Positions 9,866-48,060 of a stretch of 64,000 nt of DNA are shown here, one piece after another. The stretch covers positions 10,462 through 74,461 of the IMG/VR virus record IMGVR_UViG_3300021400_000049. One strand, written 5' to 3'. Under the pieces are notes generated by a model. That model searched no databases and was not told where the DNA came from. It saw only the letters and a list, made by a program, of their open reading frames with translations. Position 1 is the stretch's first letter. Every line of letters begins with the position of its first letter. The position numbers and the translations under genes were made by a program. The DNA comes from a virus (Duplodnaviria > Caudoviricetes).

Positions 9866-9921
9866 AAAAGTCGATAAGAGTTAGAAAACAATATGTTCTA
9901 ATGTCTGCCGACTATTCTTAG
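9862..9921 (+). CDS. polA: 19-codon polA fragment MKKSIRVRKQYVLMSADYS carrying the motif A catalytic Asp
   Basis: AGGTGA RBS and ATGA overlap with the upstream stop; YVLMSADYS matches polA motif A; ends at TAG 9919-9921. Confidence 0.75.
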   Translation: MKKSIRVRKQYVLMSADYS

Positions 9922-9922
9922 G

Positions 9923-10822
9923 TCACAACAAGAACCGAAAGTTATGACGATGATGTGTAATGACCCATCAATGATTAAAGCGTACAAAGAAGGAAAGGAT
10001 TTATATGCAGAAATTGCGGCGTTATCTTTCAATACAACTTATGAGAATTGCCTCGAGTTTAGACCCGACGGTACTACTAATCCCGAGGGTAAAGAGAGGA
10101 GAAGTCAGGCGAAGTCAATACTTCTTGGTGTTCTGTACGGCAGGGGAGTACCAAGTATTGCTGAACAACTTGGAACAACAACGGCAAAAGCTCAACAAAT
10201 AAAAGATGCAGTAATGAAAGGATTTCCAGCTATTGAAAAGTTTGAGCAAGATTCTATAGCTATGTCAGAGGATGTAGGATATGTAACAACTCTTTGGGGT
10301 AGAAAGAGAAGATTACCTTCAATGATGTTGCCTGACTTTGAATTTGAATATTTAGAGAGTGCTGATAATGCTGACCCATTAGATTTTGGTGATGATATTG
10401 ATAATGAAGTTCCTGATAGTGTTATCAATAAATATATGCACAGACTTACAAAAGCATGGGGCAGAGAAAGGATAAAGATAATATCTCAGGCTAAAGAAGA
10501 AGGAATAAAGATTATAGACCACACAAAAGATAAAGATACAACTAAGGTAGTAAATGCTAGAATACAAGGTAGTGCCGCAGACCAGTCAAAATTAGCCATG
10601 ATAGCTCTTAATAAGGATGCAAGATTAAAAGAGCTAGGATTTAGAATACTTATTCCTGTGCATGATGAGATAATAGCAGAATGTCCTATTAAAAATGCAA
10701 AAGAAGCAGTAGAGCGTTTCAAATATATAATGGAACACGCTAGTGGAGACAAATTCACAATACCTATAAAATGTGATGTAGAGTGCAGTGAAAGATGGTA
10801 TGGGGATACAATTGAAATTTAG
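9923..10822 (+). CDS. polA: DNA polymerase family A, C-terminal part (rest of motif A, motifs B and C), in the +1 frame relative to the 19-codon fragment
   Basis: SQQEPKV upstream of ATG 9944; RSQAKSILLGVLYG; NARIQGSAAD; PVHDEII. Confidence 0.9.
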   Translation, partial: SQQEPKVMTMMCNDPSMIKAYKEGKDLYAEIAALSFNTTYENCLEFRPDGTTNPEGKERRSQAKSILLGVLYGRGVPSIAEQLGTTTAKAQQIKDAVMKGFPAIEKFEQDSIAMSEDVGYVTTLWGRKRRLPSMMLPDFEFEYLESADNADPLDFGDDIDNEVPDSVINKYMHRLTKAWGRERIKIISQAKEEGIKIIDHTKDKDTTKVVNARIQGSAADQSKLAMIALNKDARLKELGFRILIPVHDEIIAECPIKNAKEAVERFKYIMEHASGDKFTIPIKCDVECSERWYGDTIEI

Positions 10823-10859: not shown

Positions 10860-11522
10860 ATGACTAAAATATATTTGGTGACAAATCTAATAAATGGCAA
10901 GCAATATGTTGGTAAAACGAAATATTCATTAGCTCATAGATGGGCACAACATTGTACTAGACCGTACAATACATATTTACATAATGCTATTGTAAAATAT
11001 GGCAAAGAAAATTTTAAGATAGAGGAGTTATGTAGATGCTCAGATGACAAGTGGGAAGATTTGGAGAAATATTATATTCAAAAATATCATACACATTATA
11101 CTTGTGGAGGGTATAACATTTCTTTAGGTGGAGATTCTAATCCTATGGACGACCCTGTAGCTAGAGAACGACATAAGGCAAAAATGTCATCAGTAGAGCA
11201 AAAACTAAAGGATAGTGCGACTATAAGAAAATATAATTCGTCAGAGTTACGCAAACAACATGATAAGAAGACCTCTGAGAGACAGAAAGGCATATATAAT
11301 ACTCAATTTAGAAAATATAATGATTCTAAGAAAGTACGAATAGGTATGATTGAAGAAGGAAAAATTATTAAAGAGTTCGATTGCGCATCTGATGCCTGTA
11401 GATTTTTAGGTAAGCCATCAAAAGAAGCAGGTCATATTTTGAAAGTTTGTGATTGTATAAATAAATTTGGAAGACCAGCAAAGCATTTTGGATATAGCTG
11501 GACAAGATTGGAGAAAGAATGA
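10860..11522 (+). CDS. Free-standing GIY-YIG homing endonuclease (NUMOD1-like C-terminus)
   Basis: KIYLVTNLINGKQYVGKT...HRW; LEKYYIQKY; FDCASDACRFLG. Confidence 0.85.
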   Translation: MTKIYLVTNLINGKQYVGKTKYSLAHRWAQHCTRPYNTYLHNAIVKYGKENFKIEELCRCSDDKWEDLEKYYIQKYHTHYTCGGYNISLGGDSNPMDDPVARERHKAKMSSVEQKLKDSATIRKYNSSELRKQHDKKTSERQKGIYNTQFRKYNDSKKVRIGMIEEGKIIKEFDCASDACRFLGKPSKEAGHILKVCDCINKFGRPAKHFGYSWTRLEKE

Positions 11523-12379
11523 GATTTGCGGTATTCATATTATCTCATGCTAGAGCTAATAGGGTTGAGACCTATAATACATTAAGAGATGCAGGATATA
11601 CAGGTAAAATATATATTACTGTAGATGATGAAGATTCACAATTATCTACATACAAAGATAGATTTGAAAATTCGGATGATGATACTGAGCTTTTAGTGTT
11701 TGGTAAACAACCTATGATTGATATTGCTGATACTGTATATCCTGAAAAGAAAAGAAGTTCAGCATTATACGCTCGTAATTTTATAGAGAATATGGCAGAA
11801 ATATTTAGATTAGATACTTTTGCCATGATGGACGATGATATTACATCATTAAGATTTAGATGGATAGAAGATGGTTCAGTAAAGTCACATATTGTAAATT
11901 CAACTATGGATAAAGTATTTGAATACTACAGTCAGTATATAATTGACGCTGAGATTGCCACAGCTTCATTTCCATACAGTATGTTCTATGTATCAGGAAC
12001 AAGCGGGTTAGATAAGAAAATTACAGAGAGTAGGCATACTTATCAGATACATATAAGGAATACAAATTTTCCTGTTGATTGGGTATCTGTAATAAATCAA
12101 GATACAATCACACAGTTACAGACAATGCAAGTAGGTTATATATGGTGGTCAATACCTTATCTAGTATTTGATGCAGAACCTATGAACAGTAAATCAGGTG
12201 GATTAAAGTCTGTATACGATAGTATAAAAGATTTTGATATGGCATTTCTCGCAGTAATTTCTAATCCTAGTTGTTGTAAAGTAGCTTATTCTAGTGGACC
12301 TAGAAGTACAATGCAGATAAAAGAAGATAAGCACACAAGTTATCCTATGATTGTTAGTGAAAGGTATATGAAACTATGA
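11519..12379 (+). CDS. GREB1/TAGT-like GT-A glycosyltransferase
   Basis: FILSHARA...TL...GY; MMDDDI; EPMNSKSGG. Confidence 0.65.
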   Translation: MRFAVFILSHARANRVETYNTLRDAGYTGKIYITVDDEDSQLSTYKDRFENSDDDTELLVFGKQPMIDIADTVYPEKKRSSALYARNFIENMAEIFRLDTFAMMDDDITSLRFRWIEDGSVKSHIVNSTMDKVFEYYSQYIIDAEIATASFPYSMFYVSGTSGLDKKITESRHTYQIHIRNTNFPVDWVSVINQDTITQLQTMQVGYIWWSIPYLVFDAEPMNSKSGGLKSVYDSIKDFDMAFLAVISNPSCCKVAYSSGPRSTMQIKEDKHTSYPMIVSERYMKL

Positions 12380-13215
12380 TTGTGTATATAAAAACACATG
12401 GCAGACCAGGTAAGCAGTTGACTTACAATACTCTACGAGAAGCTGGCTACACAGGAGATATAGTCTTAGTCATAGATAATGAAGATGAATGTGGTGTAGG
12501 ATATTTAGAGTTCGTGAAACATGATGACAGACTATGGTTGCACATCTTTGATAAACAAAAATTGGTAGATGAGATAGATAGTGGCACAAATATTCCTAAA
12601 AGAGATGTAAATTTATATGCTTGGGTTGCTTGTGAGAGATTTGCAGAACAAGATGGTAATGATTTCTTCATAATGGCAGATGATGATATAACAAGATTTA
12701 GGTATAGGTATCTTGAAGATGGACATTTAAAGTCAATACCTATAACACAGAATCTTGATAGAGTATTTGAACATATTCAGAATTATATGGAATGCTCCAA
12801 TATAGCCGCTGCCAGCACAGGAATACCTCAAATGTACTTCTCTAAAGAGTTAGACGAAAATCTGTGGAAATACAGAGTGGCGTATCAATTCGTATTCAGA
12901 AATCCTAAATTTGATATGAATTGGGTGTCTGAATATGAAGAGGATATAATAACATCCATCAATATGTCAAAAGAAGGAAAGTATGTCACTTGTTTACCTA
13001 TGATTCAGCATGACGCAGTAGCTTTAGGTAAATCAGATGGCGGTATGAAAAGTATGTATGATGAGAATAATAGTCGATTTAGTCTCGCTGAGTATGGCCA
13101 TATATTTAATCCTTCTTGTGAGATTATGAATTTTTATAAAGGTAAGTGGATAACTAATATAAAAAGAGATAACGCATTTCAGAAATTAGTGAGTTCCAGT
13201 CGCAAGAAGATATAA
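12376..13215 (+). CDS. GREB1/TAGT-like GT-A glycosyltransferase (paralog)
   Basis: IKTHGRP...TL...GY; MADDDI; EEDI; KSDGGM. Confidence 0.65.
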   Translation: MIVYIKTHGRPGKQLTYNTLREAGYTGDIVLVIDNEDECGVGYLEFVKHDDRLWLHIFDKQKLVDEIDSGTNIPKRDVNLYAWVACERFAEQDGNDFFIMADDDITRFRYRYLEDGHLKSIPITQNLDRVFEHIQNYMECSNIAAASTGIPQMYFSKELDENLWKYRVAYQFVFRNPKFDMNWVSEYEEDIITSINMSKEGKYVTCLPMIQHDAVALGKSDGGMKSMYDENNSRFSLAEYGHIFNPSCEIMNFYKGKWITNIKRDNAFQKLVSSSRKKI

Positions 13216-13264
13216 AGTGTTATATAATGTTTAAGTAGTTCACACTAAGTTGAAAGGAGATAGT

Positions 13265-13759
13265 ATGAAGCAGTTATTTGAGGATGATAGTGCAAAGAAA
13301 AATCCTATGGGGGATGATACAAAGTATTCAAGAGCAATAAGAGTACCACAGTATGAACCTAAGAATGAGAAGCCTGAGTTGGAGTCAGTTTATGACCTCA
13401 CTAAGTATAGCAAGTTGATTGCTAAAATCAATAAGTCGGGTGTTACGGAAGAAGAAAAGAAGTTTCTCAAATTTGCCGCAACAAGACATATTGTATTTAC
13501 TTATAGTAAGATAGCTGATTATTATGCCAATGCTAGTGCTGAGATGCAGGCACTAATGGAAGAATCAGCACTTGTTATACTTGACATTGACGATGCTATA
13601 GCAAATGGATATGTGGCTCTATCAGAGAAGATGAAACAACTTATTGATGAAGAAAAGGCTAGAGATGCAAAAGCTAGAGAGGCTAGTAATATATTGAAGG
13701 CTCAAAGAGAATTAGCAGAGAAGAAAGCTAAGGAGAAAAAGGATGAGCAGAAGTCTTGA
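13265..13759 (+). CDS. Conserved alpha-helical phage protein accompanying GREB1-like glycosyltransferases
   Basis: IRVPQYEP, AATRHIVFTYSKIADYYA, EESALVILDIDDAIANGY; own promoter and RBS at 13200-13260. Confidence 0.5.
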   Translation: MKQLFEDDSAKKNPMGDDTKYSRAIRVPQYEPKNEKPELESVYDLTKYSKLIAKINKSGVTEEEKKFLKFAATRHIVFTYSKIADYYANASAEMQALMEESALVILDIDDAIANGYVALSEKMKQLIDEEKARDAKAREASNILKAQRELAEKKAKEKKDEQKS

Positions 13760-14609
13760 TGATTTTGCAGTATTAGTCTTAACTCATGGTAGAGCAGAGA
13801 ATGTTCCTACATACGGTACATTAAGAAAGTACGGTTATACAGGCAGAATAATAATGGTAGTTGATGATGAAGATCCTGATTTAGAGAATTACATTTCAGT
13901 GTATGGTAAAGAAAATGTGGAAGTATTCTCTAAAGATGAGGTTGTGCATAAGTTCGACACAATGGATATTCCTAAGCATAGAAAGTGTATAGTGTACGCT
14001 AGAAATGCCAGCTATGATATTGCAGAGAGACTTGGCTTAAAGTATTTTGCTCAGTACGATGATGATTATGTAACAAACCCTTATAGATGGCAAGAAGGAG
14101 ATACATTATATCGAAGTACATTAGCTAATCTTGATGAGGTATTTAAGGCACATATAGATTTTCTTGAAACTAATCCTAATATCTATACTGTAGCGTTTGG
14201 TCAAGCAGGAGATTATATAGGTGGTGTAGGCAGTAATCTTGTTAAGAGAAAGTGGCTAAGAAAAGCCATGAATAGCTTCATTTGTAAGACTGATAGACGA
14301 ATACAGTTTAACGGAACAATAAATGAGGATGTAAATGCCTATGTGCTGAATGGTTCAAGAGGTCAGATATATCTCACATTTGATTTTATGATGATAGACC
14401 AAGCAGAGACACAGACACAAGCAGGTGGTATGGCAGATTTATACTTAGGTGTAGGTACATATCAAAAGTCATTCTATACTGTAATGTGTAGTCCATCATG
14501 TGTGAAAGTAGGTATGATGGGAGATAGACATTATCGTATGCACCATAATATAGAATGGGATAATGCAGTTCCAAAAATAATATCAGATAGATATAAGAAA
14601 ACAAAATAG
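13743..14609 (+). CDS. GREB1/TAGT-like GT-A glycosyltransferase (third paralog)
   Basis: VLTHGRA...TL...GY; QYDDDY; INEDVN; QTQAGGM. Confidence 0.7.
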   Translation: MSRSLDDFAVLVLTHGRAENVPTYGTLRKYGYTGRIIMVVDDEDPDLENYISVYGKENVEVFSKDEVVHKFDTMDIPKHRKCIVYARNASYDIAERLGLKYFAQYDDDYVTNPYRWQEGDTLYRSTLANLDEVFKAHIDFLETNPNIYTVAFGQAGDYIGGVGSNLVKRKWLRKAMNSFICKTDRRIQFNGTINEDVNAYVLNGSRGQIYLTFDFMMIDQAETQTQAGGMADLYLGVGTYQKSFYTVMCSPSCVKVGMMGDRHYRMHHNIEWDNAVPKIISDRYKKTK

Positions 14610-30427: not shown

Positions 30428-33400
30428 TTCCTGTTGATGTTTATTTATAGGTATATTACCTTATACTTGTAAACGAAAACATAGTTTTTGAAAGGAGAAA
30501 TTATGCAGGTATTATTTGACGAAAGGGATTATGAACCATTAAAAGAAGGAGAGACTTACGAAGGCAAGTTTGTAATTATTACACCTGAGTTCTTCAAGCC
30601 AGAGTTTAGAAATGCAAAATATCAGTTGTTTCATGCAGAAGCAGGATTTGGATGTGATCCTAGTAAGATAGGTAATGCAGTGTTTGGTAAAGATTGTGAG
30701 GAGACTTACAGACAGGAGAGATACAATATTCTCGGTGTAGCTAAGGAGTCCGCAATTCGTGAGTGGGAAAGAACATACCACATGAGTAGAGAGGTTTTCT
30801 ACAGAAAGGAGAATGATTGATGGAAGAATTTACAACAACATTTTGGCAAGATTTCACAATAGCTGACGCCTTCGGTGCGTCAGCTATCAAAGACACCTTT
30901 AAGAGAGCGTTTGAAGAATGGAAGTCAGACTACAGATACCTTACTGATTTAGTAATGGTAGTAAATCATAAGTGCTGGCAGCATTATGAGGAAGGCAATA
31001 CAGAGATTAGCCAGATTTATTCAGATTTATATTATAAGGCTGATGCTTATGCCTGCGAGAACTTAAAGGGTGAAGAGTTGAGTTACTATTTTAGGGTAAC
31101 AGATTGAAAGGGAAATATTATGAAATCTGAAATTAAGTGGAGAGATAATCTTAAAAGTATAGGTACTAATATTCCTAGGGTTGTTCCTAATGAAATCTAC
31201 ATGGCTATGAGTTCTATCGAATTTTATACAAAGACAATCAAGGCATTAGAAAGAGTGGGATGGAAATACTCGGGACGAGATGGAATGATTACTGGTATAC
31301 ATAACGAAAGGGCTATACAGATAGATATTGTGGAACAATATAATGACCATATGTACTTAGTAAAGTTCTGGAAAGACGGCAGTGTACATCTATATTTTAG
31401 AGATGAATACCTTAAAAACAGATATGGAAGGAGAGTATTGATATGAGTAAACCATATAGCAGAGATTATGAATCGGAACTATTAGATTTAGTCAGAGAGA
31501 ACGGAATAACAGATGAGGACTTAGTGTCCTCATTCCTGTGTTATTTCAGTTCAGATGATACCTGTGCTTGTCTTGAAGATGTGTGCAGAACCTATGATAT
31601 AGAGTATGAGGAAGAATAACTTCCTGTTGATAGGATAGCTGAAATATGCTATCCTATTTTTGTAAACAAAAACACACAAATGTTTGAAAGGAGAATATTA
31701 TGGCAGTAAGGATTATGAAGAGGTGTTTCTGCTGTGGCAGAGAATCATCATTGGAGATTACTGATGAGGTAAATAAGAGGTATGAGATGTATCTCAATGG
31801 AGTAGGATATATACAAGATATTCCACTACCAGCAGACCAGAGAGAATTTTTAAAGACAGGTATGTGTCTCAGTTGTCAGGAGTTAATCTTTGCAGATCCT
31901 GATGAAGAATAAATTCCTATTGATAAGGTAGCACCTTAGTGCTACCTTATTGTTGTAAACAAAAACACATTATGAAAGAGAGGTACCAAATGAAACGAGT
32001 TATTTATTTACCAGATGAGCTTAACGAGAATAAGCATATCCTCAAAGAAGTCTATGAGGGACATGGTGTATACAGAAGATACACACCCTCAGGATATCCA
32101 GTACATCAAGAGTGGGCAATAGTAAGAGAAAGTGATGGCTTCACTATTGTTACAGAGTCCTATAATAGTCTTGACCGTGTAGATATGCTGGATGCTATTG
32201 ATAACTACAAAGAAACAGGTAAATATGGTTTTACCTGCTTACAGACACACAAAGGTAAAGAGCATGGCTACTACAATGTACATAGAGGAGGTAATTTAAA
32301 GCTATGAGTTTTTGTGATTTCCATACAATGCAGACAAGGAGCGGTAAAGTATTCACCCCACTTTCTACAAATGATGTGGTAGATGTAATCAGAGATGAAA
32401 TGGGTGATGAGATAGCTGATTACCTCGATGAGTGTTTTTCAGATACTGCCTTAGAACAAGATACTGCCTATACATTATTACAGGATGAGTTTGCAAGTTA
32501 CGAGCAGGAGAACGAGAACTGGCATAACTTTGTAGATGAACTGTCAGAAGAAATAGAGGCAGTTAGAAGGAAGATAGAGGATAACAAATTAACAAAAGCC
32601 AAAATATCCATAGAGCTATATAAAATATATGAAAAGATGAGAAAGGAACTTTAATATGGACGAATTACAACTTATGGTACAGGCATTAGCCGGTACAATC
32701 GAAGATAATACGGCAGAGCTTAGAAAGATGAAGTCAGCAGGTAAACAGGATACAAAGATGTATATCCATAAGTTAGGAGAGATTTCAGCTTATGAGGATG
32801 TACTTAATATGGTCATATGGAGAATCAATCAGCTTTCTAATAAGTGAGGTGAATGATATGTGGTACTTAGTATTATTTATCCTCTTTTGTATATTCTTTC
32901 TTTAATAAGTTCCTGTTGAACTGGTATCTCCTACATGATATCCTATTCTTGTAAAGAAAACAAGAACACATATCTTGAAAGGAGATACCAAAATGACTAA
33001 AGAGGAAATTAAGCAGTACGAGAACAAGGAACCCATAGGTATATACGCACTCAGTAATTGGGGTGGCATAGAGATTTTAGATATTCTCTATGGTATTGAT
33101 GATTATGTGGTAGTAAGATACTATGGTAAGTCCTATCATAGAGTAAAGATTCACTATGGTGTAAACCATAGTTCATTCAGAATAGGCAGATTGACAATAC
33201 GCCTTGATGAGTGTATGAGAGTGTGAGGTAAAACCATGAAAGAGTATATTATAGTAGGGGATACAAAGTCTTTTAAGGATTGTCTTATCACTGTAGTGAG
33301 GGGTGATAGAAATGCCGCAGAGAAAGTGTTGGAGCGTATGCTATATGCTCCAACAGAAAATGACTATAAACTTATGGAAGGTCATAAGAATCTGAGAATC

Positions 33401-33715
33401 AAAGAGGTTAAAGAAAAAGACCAGTGGTGGAATGATCCGTTCTTAGCAAATTGAGAGGAGAAAGAGGATGCGAAAAATTAGTAAGAGTAAGTGGAAGAAG
33501 TGGTTATTGATGCATAGAGATTCAATACTTTAAAGGAGAAAGAAGATGAGTCAGTTAGGATATGAATGTTGTATATGCCATAAGATATTTACAGATTGGG
33601 GTAATGACCCATGGCCAGTAGTGAAAGATGATGATGCAAGGTGTTGTGACGACTGTAATAGTTCAGTGGTACTGCCTGCAAGATTAGCACAATTATTAAA
33701 TAAGGAGGATAATAA

Positions 33716-33976
33716 ATGAAGGATTTTGTAAATGATTTTGAGGTAAGAAAGGGAAAGTTAGATACTCTTGTAGCCAATGCTGGTTACAAGAGTTTTAGAG
33801 AGTTTGCCAAAGATACAGGAGTAACTGCCGCAAATCTATATTCAAATCTTCATGGTACATGGCATATGTCAATGAAAAGAATGTTTAAGGTAGCAAACAC
33901 ACTGAATGTGCCTATACTTCAGGTAATAGAGATTTTCTATCCAGATGAGCTGGCAGAGAATCAGGCATTGTTCTAA
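33716..33976 (+). CDS. Cro/C1-type HTH protein
   Basis: FREFAKDTGVTAANLYS...MFKVANTLNV. Confidence 0.7.
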   Translation: MKDFVNDFEVRKGKLDTLVANAGYKSFREFAKDTGVTAANLYSNLHGTWHMSMKRMFKVANTLNVPILQVIEIFYPDELAENQALF

Positions 33977-35000
33977 AATGTTCCAGTTGTATTCAGCTAC
34001 AGGATATATTACCTTATACTTGTAAACAAAAACAGTTCTATTTGAAAGGAGAACCAATATGTTAGTAACATCAATAGAAATCAGAGAGTGGTTAGATAAA
34101 CAGATTGAGGCCTATCACACATCCTTAGAGAAGTTGATAGTCAATGATGATGGAGATTACCTTAGTAACATCGGTGTTCAGGACAGAGGTATTCATCTCT
34201 GCTCAGATGCAGTAAGGTTTATTGCAGACAGACTTGGTATTGACCTCTGTGTAACATTAAGAAAGAGGGATACGGAGAATCCGTATGAGATTTTCATTCT
34301 GTATAAGGGTGAGAAGTTCTTCGGAATTGAAACTGAGGAAGAGTATCAGGAGAAAGGGGCAGTGGTATAAACCACTGCTCTTTAAAGAGGATAATGCTAT
34401 GATGAAGTTTGTAACATCCTGTATAGATGAAAAGACAGGATATGAGATGGTTTTATCAGAAGTCAGCTATAATGTAGCTATGGATTGGCTACAAAGGCAG
34501 TGTGAGAAGTATTTCAAGGAGATATTTAGAACCGAGAATAATGGTACAGATGATGTGTGGATATATGTAGGTACACCTAAGAAAGATGTAAATCCTATGA
34601 CAGGAGAGGTAGATGTGTGGTATACAAATCAAGTTATATTCCACTATGACGAGAGCAGAGGATATTTGATGCAGGAGTAAGATATGAATTTTGAGGATTT
34701 TTTACAGAACCTATACGGTATTTCAAGTATGTCCAATGATTATGAAGAAAGGGTTGTAGTTAATACCCAAGAAGATGATTGGGTAGTAGACACTGCAATA
34801 GTTACAGATAGGAGCTGGACATATGAGACCGCAGTAATGAGTCCACATTTCAGAAATAATAAATGGATAATAGTCGGTAAAGCAGATACCGAAGAGGATG
34901 CAGTTAAAGTGCATGAACAATGGGTTGATATGATGAGAAATGATCCTAGGGCATTATGGGATATATATGAGGAGAAAATATTTATACACGATTGATTATA

Positions 35001-35034
35001 AGCTACTGGAACTTAATATTCCAGTAGCTTTTAT
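35001..35034 (+). terminator. Intrinsic terminator fused to a promoter cassette
   Basis: AGCTACTGGAA-7-TTCCAGTAGCT followed by TTT. Confidence 0.65.
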
Positions 35035-35998
35035 TTTACCCATATGCTACCTTATATTTGTAAACAAGAACACATAGTTACGAAAGGAGACCACTATGAT
35101 ACAGATTGAGGTTAAGTCAGAGAATGTATTCGGAGATGTGAGATTTTCTTATTGCCAGGTAGAAGATATTCCAACGCACTTCGCAAGATTAAAGTTTGAA
35201 GGCTGGGATAATATACTATCAACCCATCTTGTAGATGAGTTTGGCAGACTACTTAATGAAGATGGACAGTTAGTGTGAAAGGAGACCATTATGAAAGTTT
35301 ACAGAGATAAGGCAACAGGTAAGAAGTTATATCCCGTATGCTCATGGGAAAGAAATCAGCATAAGCTCTATAATGCCATAGATAGGGCACATAATGCAGT
35401 TACCGATTTGTATGAAGACAAGTCGGCTACAATAGAGCAGATTGATAAGGCAGAAGCGTGGGTTCAAGAAGTAGAGAGGTTGACCAGTATATTCGATAGT
35501 CATGTAGCACCTAATGGTGTAGTTTATGCACTATGGGAAGATGGTCAGAAAATAAAGGACATCATATACGGTTATGATTGTAGGCATGACCAGCTTGAGG
35601 CAGAAAGGAGAATGTGATATGTGCCAATATCCATGTAGAAACTGTGTTTATTATAAAGAGTGCGGTGAAAGCACAAGAACAATGCCATGTAATGGCAGAA
35701 TGACGAAGAGTCAGCAGAAAGGGCTAAAAGCAAGCCTGATTGTAATGGATGAGTTTCCTTTAAAGACAAGAGAGGAACTAATAAGAGAAGGAGAAAGAGA
35801 ACAGGCAAGAAGAGCCTTCTATGAGGATTGAAAGGAGACCATTATGTGTAGAAACTGCGAGAACTGCCAATATTGTAAAGAGGACTTTGAATATGATGAT
35901 TTTGGTAATACCTTCGATTACTGCAAGTGTGTACTCACCAATGAGCTGATTGATTGTTCAGAAGCAGAGCATTGTAAGGATTATACAGAGTAGTCCAT

Positions 35999-36036
35999 AA
36001 AGTGTTAGGAATCGACTCCTAACACTTTTATTTTAT
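35999..36036 (+). terminator. Intrinsic terminator
   Basis: AAAGTGTTAGGA-6-TCCTAACACTTT followed by T-rich run. Confidence 0.7.
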
Positions 36037-39000
36037 TTTGATATAAAGTATCAACGAGCAGATAAAAACGTCAGGAAAGAGCAGGAAATGAGTTGAAATA
36101 TTCCTGTTGTCAGGTATATACCTGTATGCTATCCTATATTTGTAAACAAGAACAGAGAGTAAGTTTCATGGTGCCAAGTATATCTTCGCTATGGATGCTG
36201 AAATCGCCATATATGAAAGGAGAGAATATGATACTGAATGATGGATTTTACCCGTCAAAAGAGAGCGGGGTTGTACTAGAAAGATTTGAAGATATGTGGA
36301 CAAAACACTCGATGTCCGATAAGTATGCAAGGGATATTGTGACTACCAGCAATAGTAATATTCAGACCTACTCTGATGCCTTTATGTCAGAGATGGCAGG
36401 GGATGAGATATTCTTTGCAGACTGGATAAGATATAATGAGGGATTACTACCTTACATCAAGAAAGCCGCTGATACAGTGCGTTGGCTACATGAGAATGGA
36501 TATACAGAGTACAAAGTCAATATGCAGTCCGGGATAATAAAATAAAGCGCCTGGATTAGATTTTTATCTTATAGTTGATAAATTGCACACATTGAAAGGA
36601 GAAAGTTAAAAATGGCAACAATGATTAAATATGGAACAAAAGCAGGAGAAGACCTCATACATGATATGAATTACAGACACCCTAAAGGAAATACCCTTTA
36701 TGATGTGTACGGTAAAGTTTCTTCAAAGAAGGCGAAAAGTTGGGAGAAAATCAGAGATGATTGCAACTACCTCAAAGGTAGACGCCTTCATATTATAGGA
36801 GCATCAAGTTATGGGTATTCCTGCATATATGCTTATCCTATATATGACCATAGAGATGAGAGCATTATATCCATGATGATTAGAAAGGAAACAAAGGCGA
36901 ATACCTATGAGATGGAAGTGCCTATAGATGAATATGATAAGAGAATTATACACAAAGGAGAATAAGGAAGATGTTGATATATGATGTAAACCGATATTCA
37001 GAGGATGTATGTAAGTTACCTGATACCATAGTATTACCTGATGATTTAGAAAAGGACGATGTTGATGCCACAGTCAATGCCATAATAGAGTTTGTAGAGA
37101 AGATGTATGGCAGAAAACCGAGCGCATTTGGTTGTAGAGCAAATGGCCAGATTATAAGATACAGAGCATGAATCAAATAAGTTCCAGTTGAAAAGGTAGC
37201 ACCTGAGTGCTACCTTTTTCTTGTAAACAAAAACATTTCTTGAAAGAGAGGACCTATTATGAAGTACATTACCGAAAACATTACAGAGATTGAAAAGCTG
37301 GCCGTATCTATGATGCTCTTTGCTACTTGCGGTGAAGATGAAGATACAATGGCAAATGCCGAAGTATCAAAGACTTCCCCTAACACATTCCACATTGAAT
37401 ATGATGTAGCAAATCCTTTTAATGGAATATCCCTTACAGTAGAGATTCACCGAGAGAGCTATGCTAACGGACAATCGTCAGTATTCCACTACAACGTCAT
37501 ATCTAGTGCCTATGGTGATACCGGAGAGTTCACACTGACAATCGAATAAGTTCCTGTTGATAGGATAGCACCTCTGTGCTATCCTATACTTGTAAATAAG
37601 AACACATATTGAAAGGAGAACCATTATGTTGATGATGTTAGAAGAAGTATTCCCTGGGCAGAATAGAATGAATGAATATCCTATGGGAGAAGAGCAAGAG
37701 TTCCAGAGCATGAAAGAGTTTATATCCTGGAACATAGAGCAGATTGACGAAATCCTGAAAGATGCTCCAGAGGAGCAGATAACAAAAGATAAGCTGACCA
37801 ACGGTGAGTATTCAGTCTATGAAAAAGATGGCGTGGTGTATGTGAGAGTGGAGGTGATAGCATGATTACAAGAGCAAGATTGGAAATGGTGAATGCCAAT
37901 AACAAGAAAGTGTTTGGCAGAAGTATGTGGGGCTATTGTGAATTATCCGATTTAATAGTGAAGTTTTTCAGAATAATGCCTGATTATGTGGACCAAAGTA
38001 AATGTAACCTCAGGGTTTATGATGTGAGTCATTGATATTCCAGTTGATAAGGTACTACATATGTAGTACCTTATTCTTGTAAAGAAGAACACATACATTG
38101 AAAGGAGAACCAATTATGAGAGACATTGATATGAAATGGAGTACCGCAAGAGCTACATACGACCTTATAGTAGATGGAGAGTGGTATGCAGAGGGCAATT
38201 ATGAACAGATGGATGATATGGCAAGAGCCATGAGATTAGCTGATATTGAAGAGGAAGAAGCCAGATGTTCTCAGCCTAGTGATGATTACTACGGTGATGC
38301 AGATGATTGGGATGAGTGCTGACTTATCCCATATAGAAAGGAAACCATTATGGACAAGATAGTTTTGAAACTGAAAGGCAAACTAATAAAGGCCGATGTG
38401 ATAGATTTTTCAGACAGATTAAAGTACGGCGAGATGTTAACCTATGAAGATGCAGATGATGATTGGGAGATATTCTCAGTAAAAGGAACAAAATTCTATG
38501 TAGCCTATCAGCAGTGTTCTGCCTACGATAGGGTGTGAAAGGAGACCGATATGAGTGAAAACATGGTTCTTATAATGATTGATGAGTGCGGAGATGAGCG
38601 GGAATATGACCGTTATACTGTAGGAGATGATTTAGATGAGGATTATCTCGAAATGTGGCAAGAAATGAAAATTTCCAAAGCCAGAGAAGATTATCCAGAA
38701 GCCCGTAGATTTTACTTTGAAGATAGGCGCAATTGGAATAGCATGATAAATGCCATGATTAGAGATGATGAGGGATATGACCCTTGGGAAGATGAAGAGG
38801 TGCCAGTATGAATATCATAAAGCAGAATAAGAAAAGGCAGTTAGTAGAAGAATATGGACCATACATGAATAAGAGATATGCCATATATGACACAATGGGC
38901 ATAATGGAAGTATGGTTCTCAGACAAACAAAAAGCGTTGTCCCATTGGGAGAAATATAAAAACGCGGAGACTTGGGCAGAAAAGAGAGAGCGGTATAAAC

Positions 39001-39108
39001 AAGAATTATTAGCCACAATAGAAAGAGGTGGTCCAGAATTAGATGAACTACCATTTATCTGAGCATATATCAGCTCATTAAAAAGTTGGCGGGCGAAAAG
39101 ACAACCTA

Positions 39109-39480
39109 ATCCATTCATAAATCTATCTATAGAACTAGGCAAATATAAACCATAGATTATAATACAAAAACAAAGCGGAACATAGAGGCCATGTAGAGAT
39201 ACATGACCTTTTAGTGTATACCATATACGACTCTGTAAAATCAGAAAAGAGGGCGGTAAAAGAGTCCTGTTCATATACTCCATTTATTATACCAAATACT
39301 AATACCATATAAACCATATATAGAAACCATATAAATACCATTCTTTAGCCATTTATGCCATTCGTGACATGACTTTATTTAGTCTGTATCTAGGGCCATT
39401 CAGTAGCCATCTAGACTCCTTTCACCTTCTCGCCATTTAGCCCACAATATAGCCAGCCATTCACCCGACATTATCCCCGG
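39109..39480. repeat. CCAT-rich non-coding array
   Basis: About 15 CCAT; CC at 39305, 39314, 39327, 39338, 39349, 39358 (mean spacing 10.6). Confidence 0.65.
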
Positions 39481-40167
39481 CGCCTGGAAACGAAAATTGA
39501 TTCAAATCAAGAAATTTTAGTCCACTAAAGTGCACCTTGCACAAACGGCACCAGGCCACTAGCTTTGCCCCTTGTGGCTAAATTTTGGCGGGCGTCACTA
39601 TTAGGGAAAAGTGCCGAAAAATACGGGGTAGGTATCCGATTTTTAAAAGCCCGCCAAAACCTATTCGTCAAATTGCACAAAAACCACTAGAGGCCTCTGA
39701 CCGAACTCCGATAAGACGTATTCCTGTTGTAAGGTTATATAGGCTAGATTACCATAAAATAAAAAACACACACATAAATATGAAAGAGAGGATACCAATA
39801 TGACAAGAAATGCATTAGTATTAGAGTCTGCCAAAGAATATGCAAGAAAGGGTGCATGGAAGACCGCAGACAGAACATTACATGAAGTTATGGTAGATCC
39901 ATATAACTTTGATGATGAAGAACAGGAGATGGAAGCAAGAGAGTTACAGGTAGAGATAACTTCTCATGTAGCCCTCACTTATGAGCAACTCATGGATTTA
40001 GCCCTTAAGCATTATAACAAGGGCGGGGATAGTACATATGAATGTTGGGAAGAAAGAGATTACCAAGAACATGGACCTATGAGTAAGTATGAAGCACTCC
40101 GTATGTTTGCTATGGATTATGATATAGAAAGGGATAGAATGGGTTGGTAATATACAATCCATTATTT

Positions 40168-40202
40168 AGCTCCGCCCATTATCTGAGCGGAGCTTTTCTT
40201 TT
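40168..40202 (+). terminator. Terminator closing the early region
   Basis: AGCTCCGC/GCGGAGCT followed by TTTCTTTT. Confidence 0.65.
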
Positions 40203-40383
40203 GCCCATTTATTACCTCTAGAGGTATATATTAATATAGAAGAAACGGAACCTAAAATATAAAAATCATTGACACCGCCTTCTTTTTAGATGTATTATAA
40301 CCATGCAGAGAATAGTGAGGCGAGAGTGAAAACCATGACCCCTAAAAGAGATTGAGATTGGGGTATGAAGGAGTAGCTAGGCC

Positions 40384-40463
40384 AAGCGAAAAACGGTTAA
40401 GCGAAAGAAACATGGGCTTACTGAAAAGAAACGATGGCTTACTGAGCAGAAACTGGCAGAAAC
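40384..40463. repeat. 21-bp-period tandem repeats
   Basis: AGAAAC at 40406, 40427, 40448, 40458; GGCTTACTGA at 40415 and 40436; AAGCGAAA at 40384 and 40399. Confidence 0.6.
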
Positions 40464-40538
40464 GAACATTCAAATACAGGTGTCATTACTAGGCAGAGAT
40501 ATGGAATTTACATACCTCTGGTTTTGTGCGTCTGGAAT

Positions 40539-40651
40539 CCATTCTTTTAGGCCCATCAACTCTTTGCCCATATTCCCATAGAGGCCCATTGTCTATTAGG
40601 CCCATTCCTCTATAGGCCCTTTGCTGACGTAGGCCATTGAAGCCCCTGGCC
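40539..40651. repeat. (AGG)CCCAT repeat array
   Basis: CC(C) units at 40552, 40567, 40575, 40585, 40601, 40617, 40634. Confidence 0.6.
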
Positions 40652-40725
40652 ACACACAGGTGGTGTGGTGGTATGTGAGCTTCGCTCACAGAGGATCTGC
40701 TTGCACACAATGTAATAGAATAAAG

Positions 40726-40814
40726 TGTTATTGTTTACAATTAAATAATAAACAATGTTGTTGTTTACATTTTTTAAAATTGTACTTGTAAACAATAACA
40801 ACTTATGATAATAT
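40726..40814 (+). promoter_or_regulatory. Promoter with a 15-bp perfect inverted repeat of the TGTAAACAA motif
   Basis: TGTTATTGTTTACAA (40726-40740) / TTGTAAACAATAACA (40786-40800); TTGTAA-17-TAATAT with TGn. Confidence 0.65.
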
Positions 40815-40937
40815 GATATTGAGCTTCAATAAAGCGTGAGCTTTGAAGCGTGTTCTATCTGTACTTTAACAAACATAGTTAGCTACTAACTATCATATGG
40901 AAACGTAAACACACTATATCGAAACGAGGTAACGAAA

Positions 40938-41555
40938 ATGGAAAAAACAACTATTCTCAGTAACTACAAACTCGCACAAGCTACTTTTGACAACACTAAT
41001 AAGCGTGTTGCGATGACTGACAAGGAGCTTGCAACGCTTAGAGCGATATGCAAAACTAAGACTTTCGGTCTTGTATCGTTAATTGACGATATAGACAACA
41101 TTGCAACGTTCAATGGCGATTATGATTGCAAGCTTGCTCAGAGCGGTAACGCAAAAGAGCACACACTCGTGTCTATATGGAGTCGTAACGCTATTAAACA
41201 CGTTACTAAAAAGAGTGACTATAGAGACTTTGGTGTACGTTTTCACGTTGATAAGCTTGCTCAGCTTTACAAAAATAAAGACTTTGCAAAGCTGATAGAA
41301 AATAGCAACGTGCAAGTGTATTCTCACAGAGACGGTCTTGAAATAAGATTTACGTTTAAGTCACTTGCTGACTGTCTCAAGTTTGTTGCTGATATAGACA
41401 ACGCAACAAAAGAGACTCAAAGCAAGACTCAGACTCAAAAAGAGACAAAGTCTCAGAGCAAAGCAAAAGAGCAAAGCAAGACTCAGAGCAAAGCAAAAGA
41501 GACAAAGTCTCAGAGTAAAAGCAAGACTCTAAAAGAGACTCAGAAAAAAGCGTAA
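40938..41555 (+). CDS. Proline-free hypothetical protein with a basic K/S/Q/T low-complexity tail
   Basis: GAGGT RBS; 205 aa with no Pro; gene contains no CC. Confidence 0.8.
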   Translation: MEKTTILSNYKLAQATFDNTNKRVAMTDKELATLRAICKTKTFGLVSLIDDIDNIATFNGDYDCKLAQSGNAKEHTLVSIWSRNAIKHVTKKSDYRDFGVRFHVDKLAQLYKNKDFAKLIENSNVQVYSHRDGLEIRFTFKSLADCLKFVADIDNATKETQSKTQTQKETKSQSKAKEQSKTQSKAKETKSQSKSKTLKETQKKA

Positions 41556-41627
41556 ATGCTCATGATAGCAACATTTATAGTAGTGATAATATTATTCTTA
41601 CTCTTACTTGCTTTTATCTTTTGCTGA
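41556..41627 (+). CDS. 23-aa hydrophobic single-pass membrane peptide (not in ORF track)
   Basis: TAA-ATG junction with the upstream gene; MLMIATFIVVIILFLLLLAFIFC. Confidence 0.45.
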   Translation: MLMIATFIVVIILFLLLLAFIFC

Positions 41628-41640
41628 TAGCTTAAACATT

Positions 41641-41673
41641 AAAGCACTAGCATTTTTTGCTAGTGCTTTTTTG
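41641..41673. terminator. Intrinsic, probably bidirectional terminator
   Basis: AAAGCACTAGCA-TTTTT-TGCTAGTGCTTT. Confidence 0.8.
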
Positions 41674-41770
41674 TTTGCATTAAAGCGTTACATACCACCC
41701 AGCATCTTTGTTAGCATATGCTAACACGATTGCTGAGTGAGGGGTCTTGCTCCCGTAGGTCAGCATTTTT

Positions 41771-41951
41771 TATAATGACCGTGTCTCACTTATAAAGCCC
41801 GTGGTCTTTCTCCCACAGGAGGCTGCTTTTTATAAAGACCGTGTCACTTAGGTTTTATTTATAATGACCGTGCCACTCAGATTATTCTTTCCAGTAAGAG
41901 GCTTTCTGTCTAAAATACCTGGCCACATATAATCTAAAGACCGTGAAACAC
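41771..41951. repeat. Five TATAAWG(A/C)CCGTG repeats upstream of the terminase operon
   Basis: Copies at 41771, 41791, 41831, 41860 and about 41933; four are followed by GTG-N2-3-CAC. Confidence 0.7.
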
Positions 41952-42027
41952 TCAGCATCGGTCCAGGAACTTGCTACTGATTACATTTTAGTGTTATAGT
42001 ATGTTTACAATAATAAGGAGAATAACT

Positions 42028-42396
42028 ATGTCACCAACACCAATAACGATAGCTAGGACAATAGCAAATGCGCTGAACATGATATATGGCACACATATAG
42101 TAATAAATACGTCACAGTTCTTTGGCGGCGAAGGTAAATTAGTACGAATGTATGTCATTAAAGACGCATTTTATTATGGCGGTAAAAGTGAGTATTCAGA
42201 TAAAGAGCTATTCAAGACCGCCAGCGGAGTGTATGCGTGTTTGTACATGAGGGATATGCTTAATGCCTTCAAGGGAGAAGAGATTAAGGAGGATAATCAA
42301 GGTTATCTTAATGTTTTAGCTAAGAAGAATGGCAGAGCTAATATAGATTACATGGTGAAAACTTATTTAGGAGGAAAGGAAAATGGCAACGATTAA
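42028..42396 (+). CDS. Hypothetical protein upstream of terS
   Basis: Extended -10 TGTTATAGT at 41992-42000; AAGGAG RBS. Confidence 0.6.
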   Translation: MSPTPITIARTIANALNMIYGTHIVINTSQFFGGEGKLVRMYVIKDAFYYGGKSEYSDKELFKTASGVYACLYMRDMLNAFKGEEIKEDNQGYLNVLAKKNGRANIDYMVKTYLGGKENGND

Positions 42397-42883
42397 CTCA
42401 CAGATACCTGAGGATGCTTCGCCCAGAACACTGGATAAATTGCTTACAGGAACTTGCATTACTCACGATGGCTCAAGAATCTCACCTAAACAGGATAAGT
42501 TTATTAACCTGTATATCAAATACTCTGATCCTGCTCAGGCTGCGGAAGAAGCAGGATACATGGTTAGGAATACTAGAAAAGACAAGAGAGCCGCATATGC
42601 CAGAAAAGGCAAAGAGTTGCTTAGAGATGATGTTATAAGGAATGAAATTGCGGCTAGAATGGATGATATTAGAGGAGCTGAGATTGCTGACGCTACGGAA
42701 GTTCTAGTCTATCTTACAAGGGTTATGAGAGGAGAAGTTAAAGACCAGTTTGGAATTGACGCTTCGTTGCAGGAAAGAACTGCGGCGGCTAAAGAGCTTA
42801 ACAGAAGGCTCAGAGAGCTTGAACAGGATAAAGAGATGGGTGGAACTGGTAAAGAAGTACACCTCATATTGAGGAGAGAGTGA
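42383..42883 (+). CDS. terS: Terminase small subunit
   Basis: SPKQDKFINLYI...AAEEAGY; EVLVYLTRVMRGE; RTAAAKEL. Confidence 0.85.
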   Translation: MATINSQIPEDASPRTLDKLLTGTCITHDGSRISPKQDKFINLYIKYSDPAQAAEEAGYMVRNTRKDKRAAYARKGKELLRDDVIRNEIAARMDDIRGAEIADATEVLVYLTRVMRGEVKDQFGIDASLQERTAAAKELNRRLRELEQDKEMGGTGKEVHLILRRE

Positions 42884-42886
42884 TTT

Positions 42887-44194
42887 ATGGGTAGACACAA
42901 AAAGGCTAAGGAGAAAAATGGTGAAATTGTTTTGGATGTTAATGAAGCCATTGCTCCTGTTTATTTTGACGCTATGGATGATATTTTAGACCATAAGCAC
43001 GTTCATTATGTGTTTAAAGGCGGAAGAGGTTCTGCTAAATCTTCTTTTATTTCTGAAATGATACCTCTGGTATTAGTGAATAATCCTAAAGTTCATGCCC
43101 TTGTATTCCGAAAGATAGGTAATACTATAAAGAACTCTGTATGGTCACAGGTAGTATGGGGCATAGATAAATGGGGCCTAAGAGATTACTTTCAGATACC
43201 TAAGACTATTGCAAATCCTATAGTGTATAAACCTACAGGTCAGCAGATATTGTTTATGGGACTTGATGATCCTAACAAAGTTAAGTCTGTAAAGTTGCCT
43301 TTTGGATATATAGGAATAACATGGTTTGAAGAGTTAGACCAATTTGCAGGTGAGAAGGAAATTCGTAAAGTATTACAGTCTACAATGAGAGGTGGATTAT
43401 TATTTTGGGATTTTCGTTCATTTAACCCACCTATATCTAATCTAAACTGGGCTAATCAGTATGCTACAGATGCACTCAGTAGAGAGAACACACTGGTAAC
43501 CTCGACAAATTACATTGATATACCTGAAGAATGGCTTGGACAAGCGTTTATAGATGAAGCTGAGGACTTGAAAGAGACAAATCCACGAGCTTATGAGCAT
43601 GAGTATTTAGGTATACCTGTTGGTACAGGCGGTAATGTCTTTGAAAATGTTGAGCCTATGTACATGAATGATGATTTTATACTTGGCTTTGAAAGATGGT
43701 TAAGAGGAGTCGATTGGGGATGGTTCCCAGACCCATTTGCTTTCACATTATCTCACTTTGAGCCATCTACAAGAACTTTGTATATATTTGGTGAGTTTAG
43801 GTGTAACAAGTTATCTAATAGAGACACTTTCGATAAGGTGTTTAACGAATTACAAATTGCTGGAAGACCACTTGCATCTCCTGATGATATTATAATCTGT
43901 GATAGTGCTGAACCTAAGTCTATTTCTGACTGGAAGAGCTACGGAGCATATGGTGCTAGACCTGCTAAGAAGGAGCCTGACAGTGTTACTTACTCTATGA
44001 AGTGGCTACAGTCACTAAAGCATATTTATATTGATCCTAAGAGATGCCCAGCTACATACAAAGAATTTATCGAATATGAGTATGATAGGGATAAAGAAGA
44101 TGAAGTTATCAGTGGTTATCCTGATAAAGATAACCACTCCATCGACTCTGTGCGTTATGCTACTTCCAAGTATTGGGTAAGAAGAGGACAGTAA
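42887..44194 (+). CDS. terL: Terminase large subunit, PBSX/SPP1-like
   Basis: GGRGSAKS; WFEEL; GVDWG; DSAEP; DNHSIDSVRYA. Confidence 0.92.
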   Translation: MGRHKKAKEKNGEIVLDVNEAIAPVYFDAMDDILDHKHVHYVFKGGRGSAKSSFISEMIPLVLVNNPKVHALVFRKIGNTIKNSVWSQVVWGIDKWGLRDYFQIPKTIANPIVYKPTGQQILFMGLDDPNKVKSVKLPFGYIGITWFEELDQFAGEKEIRKVLQSTMRGGLLFWDFRSFNPPISNLNWANQYATDALSRENTLVTSTNYIDIPEEWLGQAFIDEAEDLKETNPRAYEHEYLGIPVGTGGNVFENVEPMYMNDDFILGFERWLRGVDWGWFPDPFAFTLSHFEPSTRTLYIFGEFRCNKLSNRDTFDKVFNELQIAGRPLASPDDIIICDSAEPKSISDWKSYGAYGARPAKKEPDSVTYSMKWLQSLKHIYIDPKRCPATYKEFIEYEYDRDKEDEVISGYPDKDNHSIDSVRYATSKYWVRRGQ

Positions 44195-46992: not shown

Positions 46993-48060
46993 ATGCCATT
47001 TTTTGATGCGAAATTATTTAATGGTGAAGTATTTCAGAAATATGTAGATAGAATTCCTAATATGCATCTGAATACACTTATTAAGTCTGGAGCAATCGTT
47101 GGCAGACCTGAGCTTGCGGCTTCAATGTCTGACCAGGTTGGTGGTAACTACTTGACCACACCTCTTAAGGGTCTCATCGGTGGAACACCTCTGAACTATG
47201 ATGGTGTTACAAACATCACATCTACAGGAACACAGACTTATTCACATTCCAGAGTTGTTGTAGGACGTGCTAAAGCATGGACAGAAAAGGATTTCTCTTA
47301 CGACATCACTGGCGGAGTAGACTTCATGCAGAATGTCGCTGAACAGGTTGCTGAGTATTGGGATGAGCAGGATCAGGCACTTCTTATCAAGATTCTTGAT
47401 GGTGTGTTCGCTATGTCAGACGATGCAGGAGCTGAGTTTGTAGAGGAGCATACACATGATGTATCTGGTGTTACAAACAGTGAGGGTGTTCTTGGTTACA
47501 TGGATGCAACCACACTTAACACTGGTATGCAGAAGGCTATGGGAGACCATAAGCAGAAGTTCGCTCTTACACTTATGCATTCCGCAGTAGCTACACATCT
47601 TGAGAACTTGAAGGTACTTGTTTACCTCAAGTACAACGATGCTAACGGTATGGAGAGAGACCTTAACATCGGTACTCTTAACGGACGTATGGTTATCGTT
47701 GATGATGATATGCCTGTTATCACAGAAGGATCTGGCACATCAGCAGTTAAGAAGTATGTTACTTATGTATTCGGTCAGGGTGCAGTTGAGTACACTAACT
47801 GCGGTGCTAAGGTTCCTGCTGAGATGGCAAGAGATCCTTATAAGAACGGCGGTGAGGATACACTCATCACAAGAAATAGAAAGTGCTTTGCTCCTTATGG
47901 AATTTCCTTCAAGGGCATCGGCGACATCGCAACACTTTCTCCTACAGACGCAGAGCTTGCAACTGGCGCTAACTGGGAGATTGTAAATACAGGCGGATCA
48001 TCTAAGATGTATCTTCCTCACAAGGCTATTCCTATTGCCAGAGTAATTTCACTCGGCTAA
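46993..48060 (+). CDS. Major capsid protein
   Basis: FNGEVFQKYV; NYDGVTNI; MHSAVATHL; GTLNGRMVIVDD; GGEDTLITR. Confidence 0.88.
   Translation: MPFFDAKLFNGEVFQKYVDRIPNMHLNTLIKSGAIVGRPELAASMSDQVGGNYLTTPLKGLIGGTPLNYDGVTNITSTGTQTYSHSRVVVGRAKAWTEKDFSYDITGGVDFMQNVAEQVAEYWDEQDQALLIKILDGVFAMSDDAGAEFVEEHTHDVSGVTNSEGVLGYMDATTLNTGMQKAMGDHKQKFALTLMHSAVATHLENLKVLVYLKYNDANGMERDLNIGTLNGRMVIVDDDMPVITEGSGTSAVKKYVTYVFGQGAVEYTNCGAKVPAEMARDPYKNGGEDTLITRNRKCFAPYGISFKGIGDIATLSPTDAELATGANWEIVNTGGSSKMYLPHKAIPIARVISLG

Follow-up and report, generated by a model that had tools for sequence, protein, structure and literature searches.

Why should a kilobase of phage DNA be almost free of the dinucleotides CC and GG, although C and G themselves are as common there as elsewhere in the genome? 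The question is raised by a locus of a rumen phage represented by a 74,461 bp viral contig (IMG/VR record IMGVR_UViG_3300021400_000049). We analysed a window of 64,000 nucleotides (nt), bases 10462-74461 of this contig, and positions below are those of the window unless stated otherwise. The CC/GG-free island lies at 40694-41694, upstream of the packaging genes, and contains a small gene unit. The original prediction, made from the letters alone, held that glycosyltransferases mark virion DNA at CC/GG, that only the unmarked operon fires first, and that its product licenses CC-containing promoters or further DNA entry. The island stood up to analysis, whereas the mark was not supported. Tentatively, we favour the reading that the island is an immediate-early launch pad hidden from a factor which reads CC/GG.

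Extent and recurrence of the CC/GG exclusion

The island (1,001 nt, no strand assigned) contains 0 CC and 10 GG, with 170 C and 180 G in total, while the rest of the 74-kb phage carries about 60 CC+GG per kb, and no other such stretch exists in the genome. When CC+GG was counted in 500-nt windows at 250-nt steps over the whole genome, the mean was 30.4 (standard deviation 7.4; 1st percentile 15.75), and only three windows had 12 or fewer, all of them at the island (9, 6 and 11). The operon that had been called CC/GG-free is thus unique in the genome, and its promoter is CC-free as claimed, with zero CC from 40694 on.

The ten remaining GG are found in five Gly codons, one Trp codon, the junctions ATG-GAA and AAG-GAG, the ribosome-binding GAGG and one position of the leader. 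For the 205-aa gene of the island, we redrew the codons from the usage of the phage with the amino acids fixed; 7.3 CC and 17.5 GG were expected, against 0 and 8 observed, and the resulting z-score of -4.1 is the lowest among all genes of at least 60 aa. The encoded protein contains no proline, against a genome average of 2.8%. The five Gly and the one Trp are invariant across 18 homologues, and the single avoidable GG (AAG-GAG) reads AAA-GAG in three relatives (contigs from three other runs).

One explanation is a compositional accident, in which a foreign gene arrived recently or hypermutation erased CC/GG locally. It could draw on the GC skew, which falls to about 0 in 39000-42000 (the + strand is otherwise G-rich), and on the longest CC/GG-free run (41334-41695), in which AG and CT are enriched. 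However, the trait persists over about 20% protein divergence, with different genes and in non-coding DNA; its borders are sharp, with CC-rich DNA on both sides; and the invariant Gly and Trp codons stand beside an avoidable GG that three relatives lack. Conservation, sharp borders and the retained essential GG speak against foreign origin and mutational decay, and an accident is very improbable.

To survey relatives, 80 loci were fetched with the terminase large subunit, and the minimum observed/expected ratio was used as island score. In four lineages such an island was found again upstream of the packaging genes, and the genes it contains are not the same. Island-bearing relatives share 54-98% identity in the terminase large subunit and comprise L005/L007, L006/L008 (genome G001), L010 (G002), L020 (G006), L023 (G008) and, weakly, L022 (G007); the strong islands of L010, L020 and L023 and the weaker one of L022 belong to phages whose terminase is 54-71% identical to that of this phage. 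All other loci of the 80 have a minimum ratio of at least 0.47. Scans of whole records found exactly one island each in G000, G001, G002, G006 and G008, the island of G007 being weak, while none was found in the records of G003, G004, G009 and G010, nor in the cultured Blautia phage Montmirail (minimum ratio 0.57). In these scans G002, G006 and G008 are fragments (66%, 32% and 13% complete), G003 is complete and G004 is 75% complete.

The two orthologous loci (about 80% protein identity) keep both the island and the CC/GG-dense arrays that fence it, and in three further animal-gut runs the cassette is present in relatives whose upstream stretch is replaced. Elsewhere the genes are different. 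For example, the L010 island encodes a 153-aa protein without Gly, Pro or Trp, and the L020 island a 165-aa protein, and hhalign detected no similarity of the 205-aa family to either of them. In L023 the best open reading frame (ORF) is a reverse-strand ORF of 136 aa, accompanied by 1.3 kb without clear ORF; a homologue search for this ORF returned only itself, and the gene is unconfirmed. The 205-aa family itself is small: a word-indexed search found 18 proteins, and a set of 1.84 billion proteins yielded 4 representatives. Apart from a contig that was known before, a metagenome scan with the alignment of the family gave just one match, weak and partial.

In six islands, of which three are orthologous, the non-coding part contains 0 CC and 15 GG in 3,285 nt, and the coding part 2 CC and 36 GG in 3,518 nt. 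Because the non-coding DNA is also CC-free and each lineage may carry other genes in its island, what is constrained is the DNA or a transcript of the whole island, not a single protein. Translational codon optimisation alone was rejected as the cause, since the non-coding DNA is likewise CC-free. The near-total ban over a kilobase, its cost in proline-free and glycine-poor proteins, and its maintenance across lineages with swapped genes are strong evidence that a selective agent reading CC/GG exists.

The gene unit and its shared box

The island would be a self-contained immediate-early unit, driven by a host-type promoter with three TGTAAACAA boxes and encoding a probably DNA-binding 205-aa alpha/beta protein with a lysine-rich tail, a 23-aa membrane peptide and a terminator. 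Its promoter region (40713-40814, + strand) contains a 31-nt inverted repeat with TGTAAACAA at 40731 (- strand), 40761 (- strand) and 40787 (+ strand). We infer a promoter consisting of TTGTAA (40786-40791), a 17-nt spacer and TGA-TAATAT (40809-40814), which is conserved in L006; this assignment is a reading of the sequence, and a promoter scan lists a nearby alternative. The L010 cassette has a perfect promoter, TTGACA-17-TATAAT.

A structured 115-nt leader separates the promoter from the 205-aa gene (40938-41555, + strand), whose product is basic (isoelectric point 9.6), with residues 1-158 conserved and residues 159-205 forming a variable K/S/T/Q-rich tail. It is followed by the gene for the 23-aa hydrophobic peptide (41556-41627, + strand), kept in both orthologous loci with 26 and 21 aa, and by an intrinsic-terminator-like hairpin of 12 pairs with a T run (41641-41669, + strand). 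The codon bias of the 205-aa gene is capsid-like: the share of C-ending codons is 0.53, compared with 0.47 in the capsid gene and 0.24 in the genome, and CTT and CTC make up 0.80 of the Leu codons in both genes against 0.34 in the genome. This bias fits a gene that would be expressed very highly and quickly.

No Pfam, PHROG or NCBIfam family was found for the 205-aa protein, and Foldseek against PDB gave nothing for its model at E <=0.001. The model has a pLDDT (predicted local distance difference test) score of 63, and that of the 153-aa protein of L010 a score of 82; both begin with a helix, followed by an alpha/beta domain of two layers and a long helix, and end in a lysine-rich tail that is disordered. 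Against the DNA-binding domain of T4 MotA, the 205-aa model gave weak matches to 5jlt_A (Z 4.5, root mean square deviation 3.7, 103 residues aligned) and 6k4y_M (Z 4.8), and the 153-aa model to 6k4y_M (Z 5.9) and 5jlt_A (Z 4.8), also weak. MotA entries of BFVD matched at E 0.004-0.04, several T4-type ones ranking near the top of this viral library, and six identical BFVD entries occur in the lists of both proteins; YjbR, frataxin-like proteins, PsiB and AcrIIA11 are other weak structural matches. Because both models give the same weak matches, the two lineages may keep one fold class whose product binds nucleic acid.

These matches do not establish the product as a MotA. MotA is among the best, weak matches of two independent models from two lineages, and one box lies over the -35 element of the unit. 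In contrast, only about 25 residues precede the alpha/beta domain, so that the N-terminal sigma-binding domain of MotA is lacking, a Pfam search with hits allowed to E 5 gave no match, an AsiA-like partner was not found, and the box of the early promoters is located at about +1, while the MotA box is centred near -30. Compared with acr-aca operons, inverted repeats are present here, but the unit contains no helix-turn-helix gene.

The box connects the unit with the early region. Ten early promoters of one family (TTCCWGTWG ... TGnTAyCyT ... TGTAAAnnA), each before small genes, are located on the + strand in 30428-38115 (30428, 31621, 31914, 32910, 33981, 35019, 36101, 37182, 37551 and 38038). 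An eleventh without the TGTAAA box is found at 39721 (feature 39721-40150, + strand), before a 116-aa ORF of no known family (39800-40150) that is followed by a terminator. Upstream TTCC and CC inside the -10 box (TAyCyT/TACCAT) are present in 11 of 11, as had been claimed, and the downstream TGTAAA box in 10 of 11. The motif proposed to be shared was also recovered: TGTAAACAA has 10 exact copies against 1.15 expected (about nine-fold), a count that 0 of 100 shuffles reached, it is common to the early promoters and the cassette promoter, and three copies are at the latter. In the ten early promoters with the box, it is positioned at about +1, downstream of the -10 box, an arrangement more in keeping with a repressor site or an RNA leader than with a site for an activator. 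The product of the unit would then probably act on promoters or leaders bearing TGTAAACAA, its own included.

The box may also act in RNA. Just before the window, a non-coding stretch of L004 (9440-9560, genome coordinates) is in part the early-gene leader (TGTAAAC...GAAAGAAGA) in reverse complement, with the complementarity judged by eye; this would fit an antisense small RNA, and because of it a role of the shared box in RNA as well as in DNA may be considered.

The constraint itself could act on RNA, if one long + strand transcript of the island, without CC and with few GG, escaped an endoribonuclease or Rho loading or stayed unstructured for instant translation. Such a constraint is suggested by the + strand totals of the six islands, in which CC is nearly absolutely excluded (2 in 6.8 kb) and GG is tolerated (51), an asymmetry also present in non-coding DNA and in L023 with its reversed ORF. 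The codon bias pointing to very high expression and the leader complementarity in L004 agree with it, as does a strong promoter that reads into the island: a near-consensus sigma-70-type promoter, TTGACA-18-TATTAT (40269-40298, + strand), which leads into a variable non-coding stretch. However, there is strong depletion of GG as well, which persists only where it is required by a codon or by the ribosome-binding site, and the only sizeable ORF of L023 would be antisense to such a transcript. We know of no nuclease with CC specificity. We consider this explanation unlikely.

Downstream of the 40269 promoter, two copies of a 21-nt tandem repeat, AAAGAAAC..GGCTTACTGA, are found at 40404-40445, in a stretch that is absent or replaced in relatives.

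Fences, packaging genes and DNA entry

The island is set in the most CC-rich DNA of the genome, which is phased, as had been noted for the fences near the packaging genes. Only four 500-nt windows of the genome contain at least 25 CC, and they start at 39040, 39290, 39540 and 40290; 12 of the 39 GGCC sites of the genome are within 39000-42000. Array A (39270-39470, no strand assigned, C-rich on the + strand) consists of CCA/CCAT motifs in a 9-13 nt phase, with CCA every 9-13 nt within 39280-39457, and is conserved in L005 and L006. Array B, the left fence (40540-40660, no strand assigned), contains AGGCCCATT-like units, also described as GGCCCATT units. Their GGCC recurs every 16-17 nt, in five successive copies in 40583-40648, and the array is kept in L006. 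Generally, phased arrays flank every island, and their sequence varies by lineage and is always CC/GG-dense. For example, the L010 fences are formed by GGATCC/CCGG/GGCC and a 20-nt tandem repeat, and that of L020 by (GGNN)x15. The latter, about 15 tandem GGNN units at 290-350 of L020 as the left fence, might form a G-quadruplex, and is followed by CACTTTA...TAAAGTG hairpin repeats.

On the right, at 41696-41952 (no strand assigned), a 44-nt palindrome (41696-41739) precedes 4-5 direct repeats TATAAWGACCGTG, with GACCGTG four times in 41777-41939. From its position just upstream of terS/terL, this is the putative terminase recognition (cos/pac) region. A late-type promoter is located between the TATAAWGACCGTG repeats and a conserved 122-aa ORF, the first gene of the segment 42028-44194 (+ strand), followed by the terminase small subunit (42383-42883) and large subunit (42887-44194).

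Tailed phages generally eject the end packaged last first. If the DNA ends of this phage are fixed, the unit beside the putative terminase repeats would be the last DNA packaged and the first into the cell; a cos-type site at 41696-41952 with packaging towards the late genes would make the island last in and first out. Host RNA polymerase and ribosomes would express the unit at once and at high level, and until its product acts it would offer no target to a CC/GG recogniser, while selection on the nucleic acid would keep the CC/GG step out.

The same position may be read physically, with the island and its fences as a packaging or ejection signal that could hold the DNA in portal or tail or show where a round of packaging ends. 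Of all dinucleotide steps, GG/CC is known as the one most prone to the A form. The constant place beside the terminase repeats is in line with such a signal, and so are fences that differ in sequence between lineages and are always CC/GG-dense, and a stricter exclusion on the strand running 5' to 3' in the presumed packaging direction. Island presence also follows the type of the major capsid protein (46993-48060), which by tblastn is common to 5 of 5 island-bearing genomes compared and to 0 of 4 island-less ones, while terminase, portal and scaffold proteins are common to all. No such signal is known to us, and it leaves unexplained the constant presence there of a gene that has a promoter to itself and is highly expressed; we hold it to be improbable, slightly more so than the RNA constraint.

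Known systems resemble the proposed launch pad in part. In T5, EcoRI and CRISPR (clustered regularly interspaced short palindromic repeats) systems are reported to act only on first-step-transfer DNA, at whose end lies a stop signal rich in repeats (10.1101/866236). The likeness would be a short segment that leads the DNA and has early genes of its own. In T5 this segment must be free of nuclease targets, being the sole DNA exposed before protection exists, and it is bounded by a conserved repeat-rich non-coding region; the islands here are flanked by phased arrays, for which a stop function would be conjecture. However, the unit here measures 1-1.8 kb instead of about 10 kb, a dinucleotide is excluded rather than a particular site, an order of entry and a pause would be hypothetical here, there are no homologues of A1, A2 or dmp, and the nearest characterised terminases point to headful packaging. 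For Murciavirus, absence of a restriction motif from the first-injected region, which encodes anti-defence genes, is reported to decide escape (PMC12455610).

The leading genes of T7 (gene 0.3) are transcribed towards DNA yet to enter, whereas here transcription runs towards the putative end, and the basic product is no Ocr-like acidic DNA mimic. The leading regions of conjugative plasmids, which go into the cell before the other DNA, are reportedly enriched in anti-defence genes. They are described as adapted for fast translation and as not consistently depleted of short motifs (PMC13478746). The island gene resembles them in its capsid-like codon bias and in PsiB and AcrIIA11 among the weak matches of the 153-aa model; in contrast, the depletion here is near-absolute and the element is a phage.

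Several further features belong to this locus and its phage. A conserved non-coding element (39575-39665, + strand) was found by alignment, with an 11-nt inverted repeat TTTTGGCGGGC...GCCCGCCAAAA (11-bp stem), a fold z-score of -2.2 and no Rfam family; Rfam over 38500-42500 gave only a sub-threshold GcvB match. The two ends of the contig overlap by 107 bp, and nearly all genes are on the + strand. Pfam matches describe a Firmicutes-style siphophage with terminase, SPP1-type portal, scaffold protein, tape measure and an endolysin with CW_7 repeat, and with its own DnaB, primase, split PolA, clamp, clamp loader, RecA and RecU. Animal-gut metagenomes contain near-identical DNA; none was found in the phage collection searched, and a tRNA scan detected a single tRNA-Thr, distant from the island locus. 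The split family-A DNA polymerase gene (7565-10822) has Pfam matches at 7565-9115 and 10262-10822, with a homing-endonuclease-like ORF (9329-9865) in between. The early region of G002 (L101 3098-4054) encodes an N6/N4 DNA methyltransferase (PF01555, E 8e-18), and none was found in G000.

Candidate readers of CC and GG

The reader could be the phage's own sugar mark, as the original prediction had it. The count of six glycosyltransferases is right: two GT2 genes (Pfam) and one with a GT-A/GT25-like fold (atlas structure match) are at 3676-5581 (+ strand), and three TAGT (PF20691) genes, with E from 6e-34 to 7e-19 and all above the family cut-off, are at 11519-14609 (+ strand), with an intervening 164-aa ORF that has a weak ParB-like match. 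A PDB sequence search with 4919-5581 gave nothing, and atlas and PDB sequence searches with the ORF at 5642-6355 gave nothing usable. DNA glycosylation is made plausible by six such genes located among those for replication, since the TAGT family, to which three belong, is DNA-associated. All 11 early promoters with CC in the -10 box also fit a gate of this kind, which does not require a fixed DNA end, and G000 and G001 have the island together with three TAGT genes. Post-replicative sugar marks of phages are context-dependent, which counts for it as well: most C5-methyltransferases of phages are reported to use GpC (10.1101/2023.12.21.572611), while the context reported for T-dioxygenases is NTC or NTG (PMC13229309). 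The TAGT genes lie in the replication module beside the weak ParB-like ORF, as in pathways described in the latter source.

However, these known contexts are not CC, and a literature search found no context-specific phage mark with CC specificity. No base-preparing enzyme of known type was found either: a six-frame search of the whole genome gave no candidate C5-methyltransferase (PF00145), and in the whole genome neither a TET/JBP dioxygenase (PF12851) candidate nor a thymidylate-synthase-type hydroxymethylase was found, and the ORFs of unknown function gave no family hit. Thousands of phage contigs without PF12851 annotation are reported to have been found by the 5mYOX profiles of PMC13229309 itself. 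Genome-wide, GGCC occurs 39 times against 78 expected and CCGG 21 times against 53, an avoidance about as strong as that of unshielded sites; under-representation would not be expected at shielded sites, which speaks against a CC/GG mark.

Comparison of relatives also counts against the mark. The co-occurrence proposed as a check is seen in G000 and G001 but not in the complete G003 and the 75% complete G004, which carry TAGT genes without an island; with G002, G006 and G008 being fragments, the comparison is provisional. G007, with its weak island, has no TAGT in the 1.2 kb upstream of the clamp gene, where G000 has one, and the repeated early-promoter element of the island-bearing G002 has a TATACT -10 box without CC. 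Moreover, E. coli polymerase transcribes fully glucosylated T4 DNA. We therefore regard the premise that virion DNA is marked at CC/GG as unsupported and partly contradicted, and rate the sugar gate as unlikely, though a little less so than the RNA constraint. What stands of the earlier model is a separate, host-promoter-driven and strongly codon-biased unit, which shares a box with the early promoters and encodes a basic protein with a weak DNA-binding-fold match.

For the launch pad, host interference would be the most likely reader of CC/GG, through two-letter CC/GG-type protospacer adjacent motifs (PAMs) of CRISPR systems or restriction sites containing CC/GG, and sugar marks of the phage are less likely. 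A reader that needs just two letters would be closer to the PAMs of CRISPR systems than to restriction sites. Every site or PAM containing CC/GG is nearly absent from the islands, and signs of nuclease pressure in the genome count for this reading (GATC 37 against 241 expected, CGCG 6 against 25, GGCC and CCGG at about half of expectation). The avoided palindromes differ by lineage: GATC and CGCG in G000/G001; AGCT, CTAG and ACGT in G002; CATG, CTAG and GATC in G003; GGCC and CTAG in G009/G010. Judged from these sequences, different hosts or restriction repertoires are suggested.

A number of points weigh against the launch pad. The islands show no depletion of four-base palindromes that lack CC/GG (534 observed, 544 expected), by which general restriction-site avoidance is rejected as the cause. 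The fences are the richest CC/GG targets of the genome, which pure target avoidance does not explain, and the CC asymmetry on the + strand is left unexplained too. The nearest characterised terminases, at about 46% identity, belong to the PhiCP39O group, which is listed as putatively circularly permuted and clusters with headful packagers (PMC3442830); if this holds here, the argument from a leading end fails. As the unit is transcribed towards the putative end, its transcription could not pull DNA in as in T7. The fold matches (Z 4.5-5.9) are below the trust line of the tool, about 8. Because the CC asymmetry, the link to capsid type and the variation of the fences are unexplained, the RNA and the packaging or ejection readings stay alive beside it.

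In its broadest form, the proposal is that unrelated phage groups hide a kilobase launch pad from an undescribed reader of the bare CC/GG dinucleotide, more strictly on one strand, and fence it with CC/GG arrays, the reader being host interference or a step of DNA entry or packaging. We regard this broader claim as rather doubtful, and give it less weight than the launch pad itself. In full-text searches on the topic, target-free leading regions were found only for specific restriction sites, and no CC/GG-reading agent was described for early regions of phages. If the agent is host interference, the island would mark the DNA exposed first and the gene products that disarm the host; if it is a mark of the phage, a phage programme would here be gated epigenetically. 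In both cases, immediate-early or anti-defence modules of uncultured phages could be found by the exclusion, a signature simple to read from sequence.

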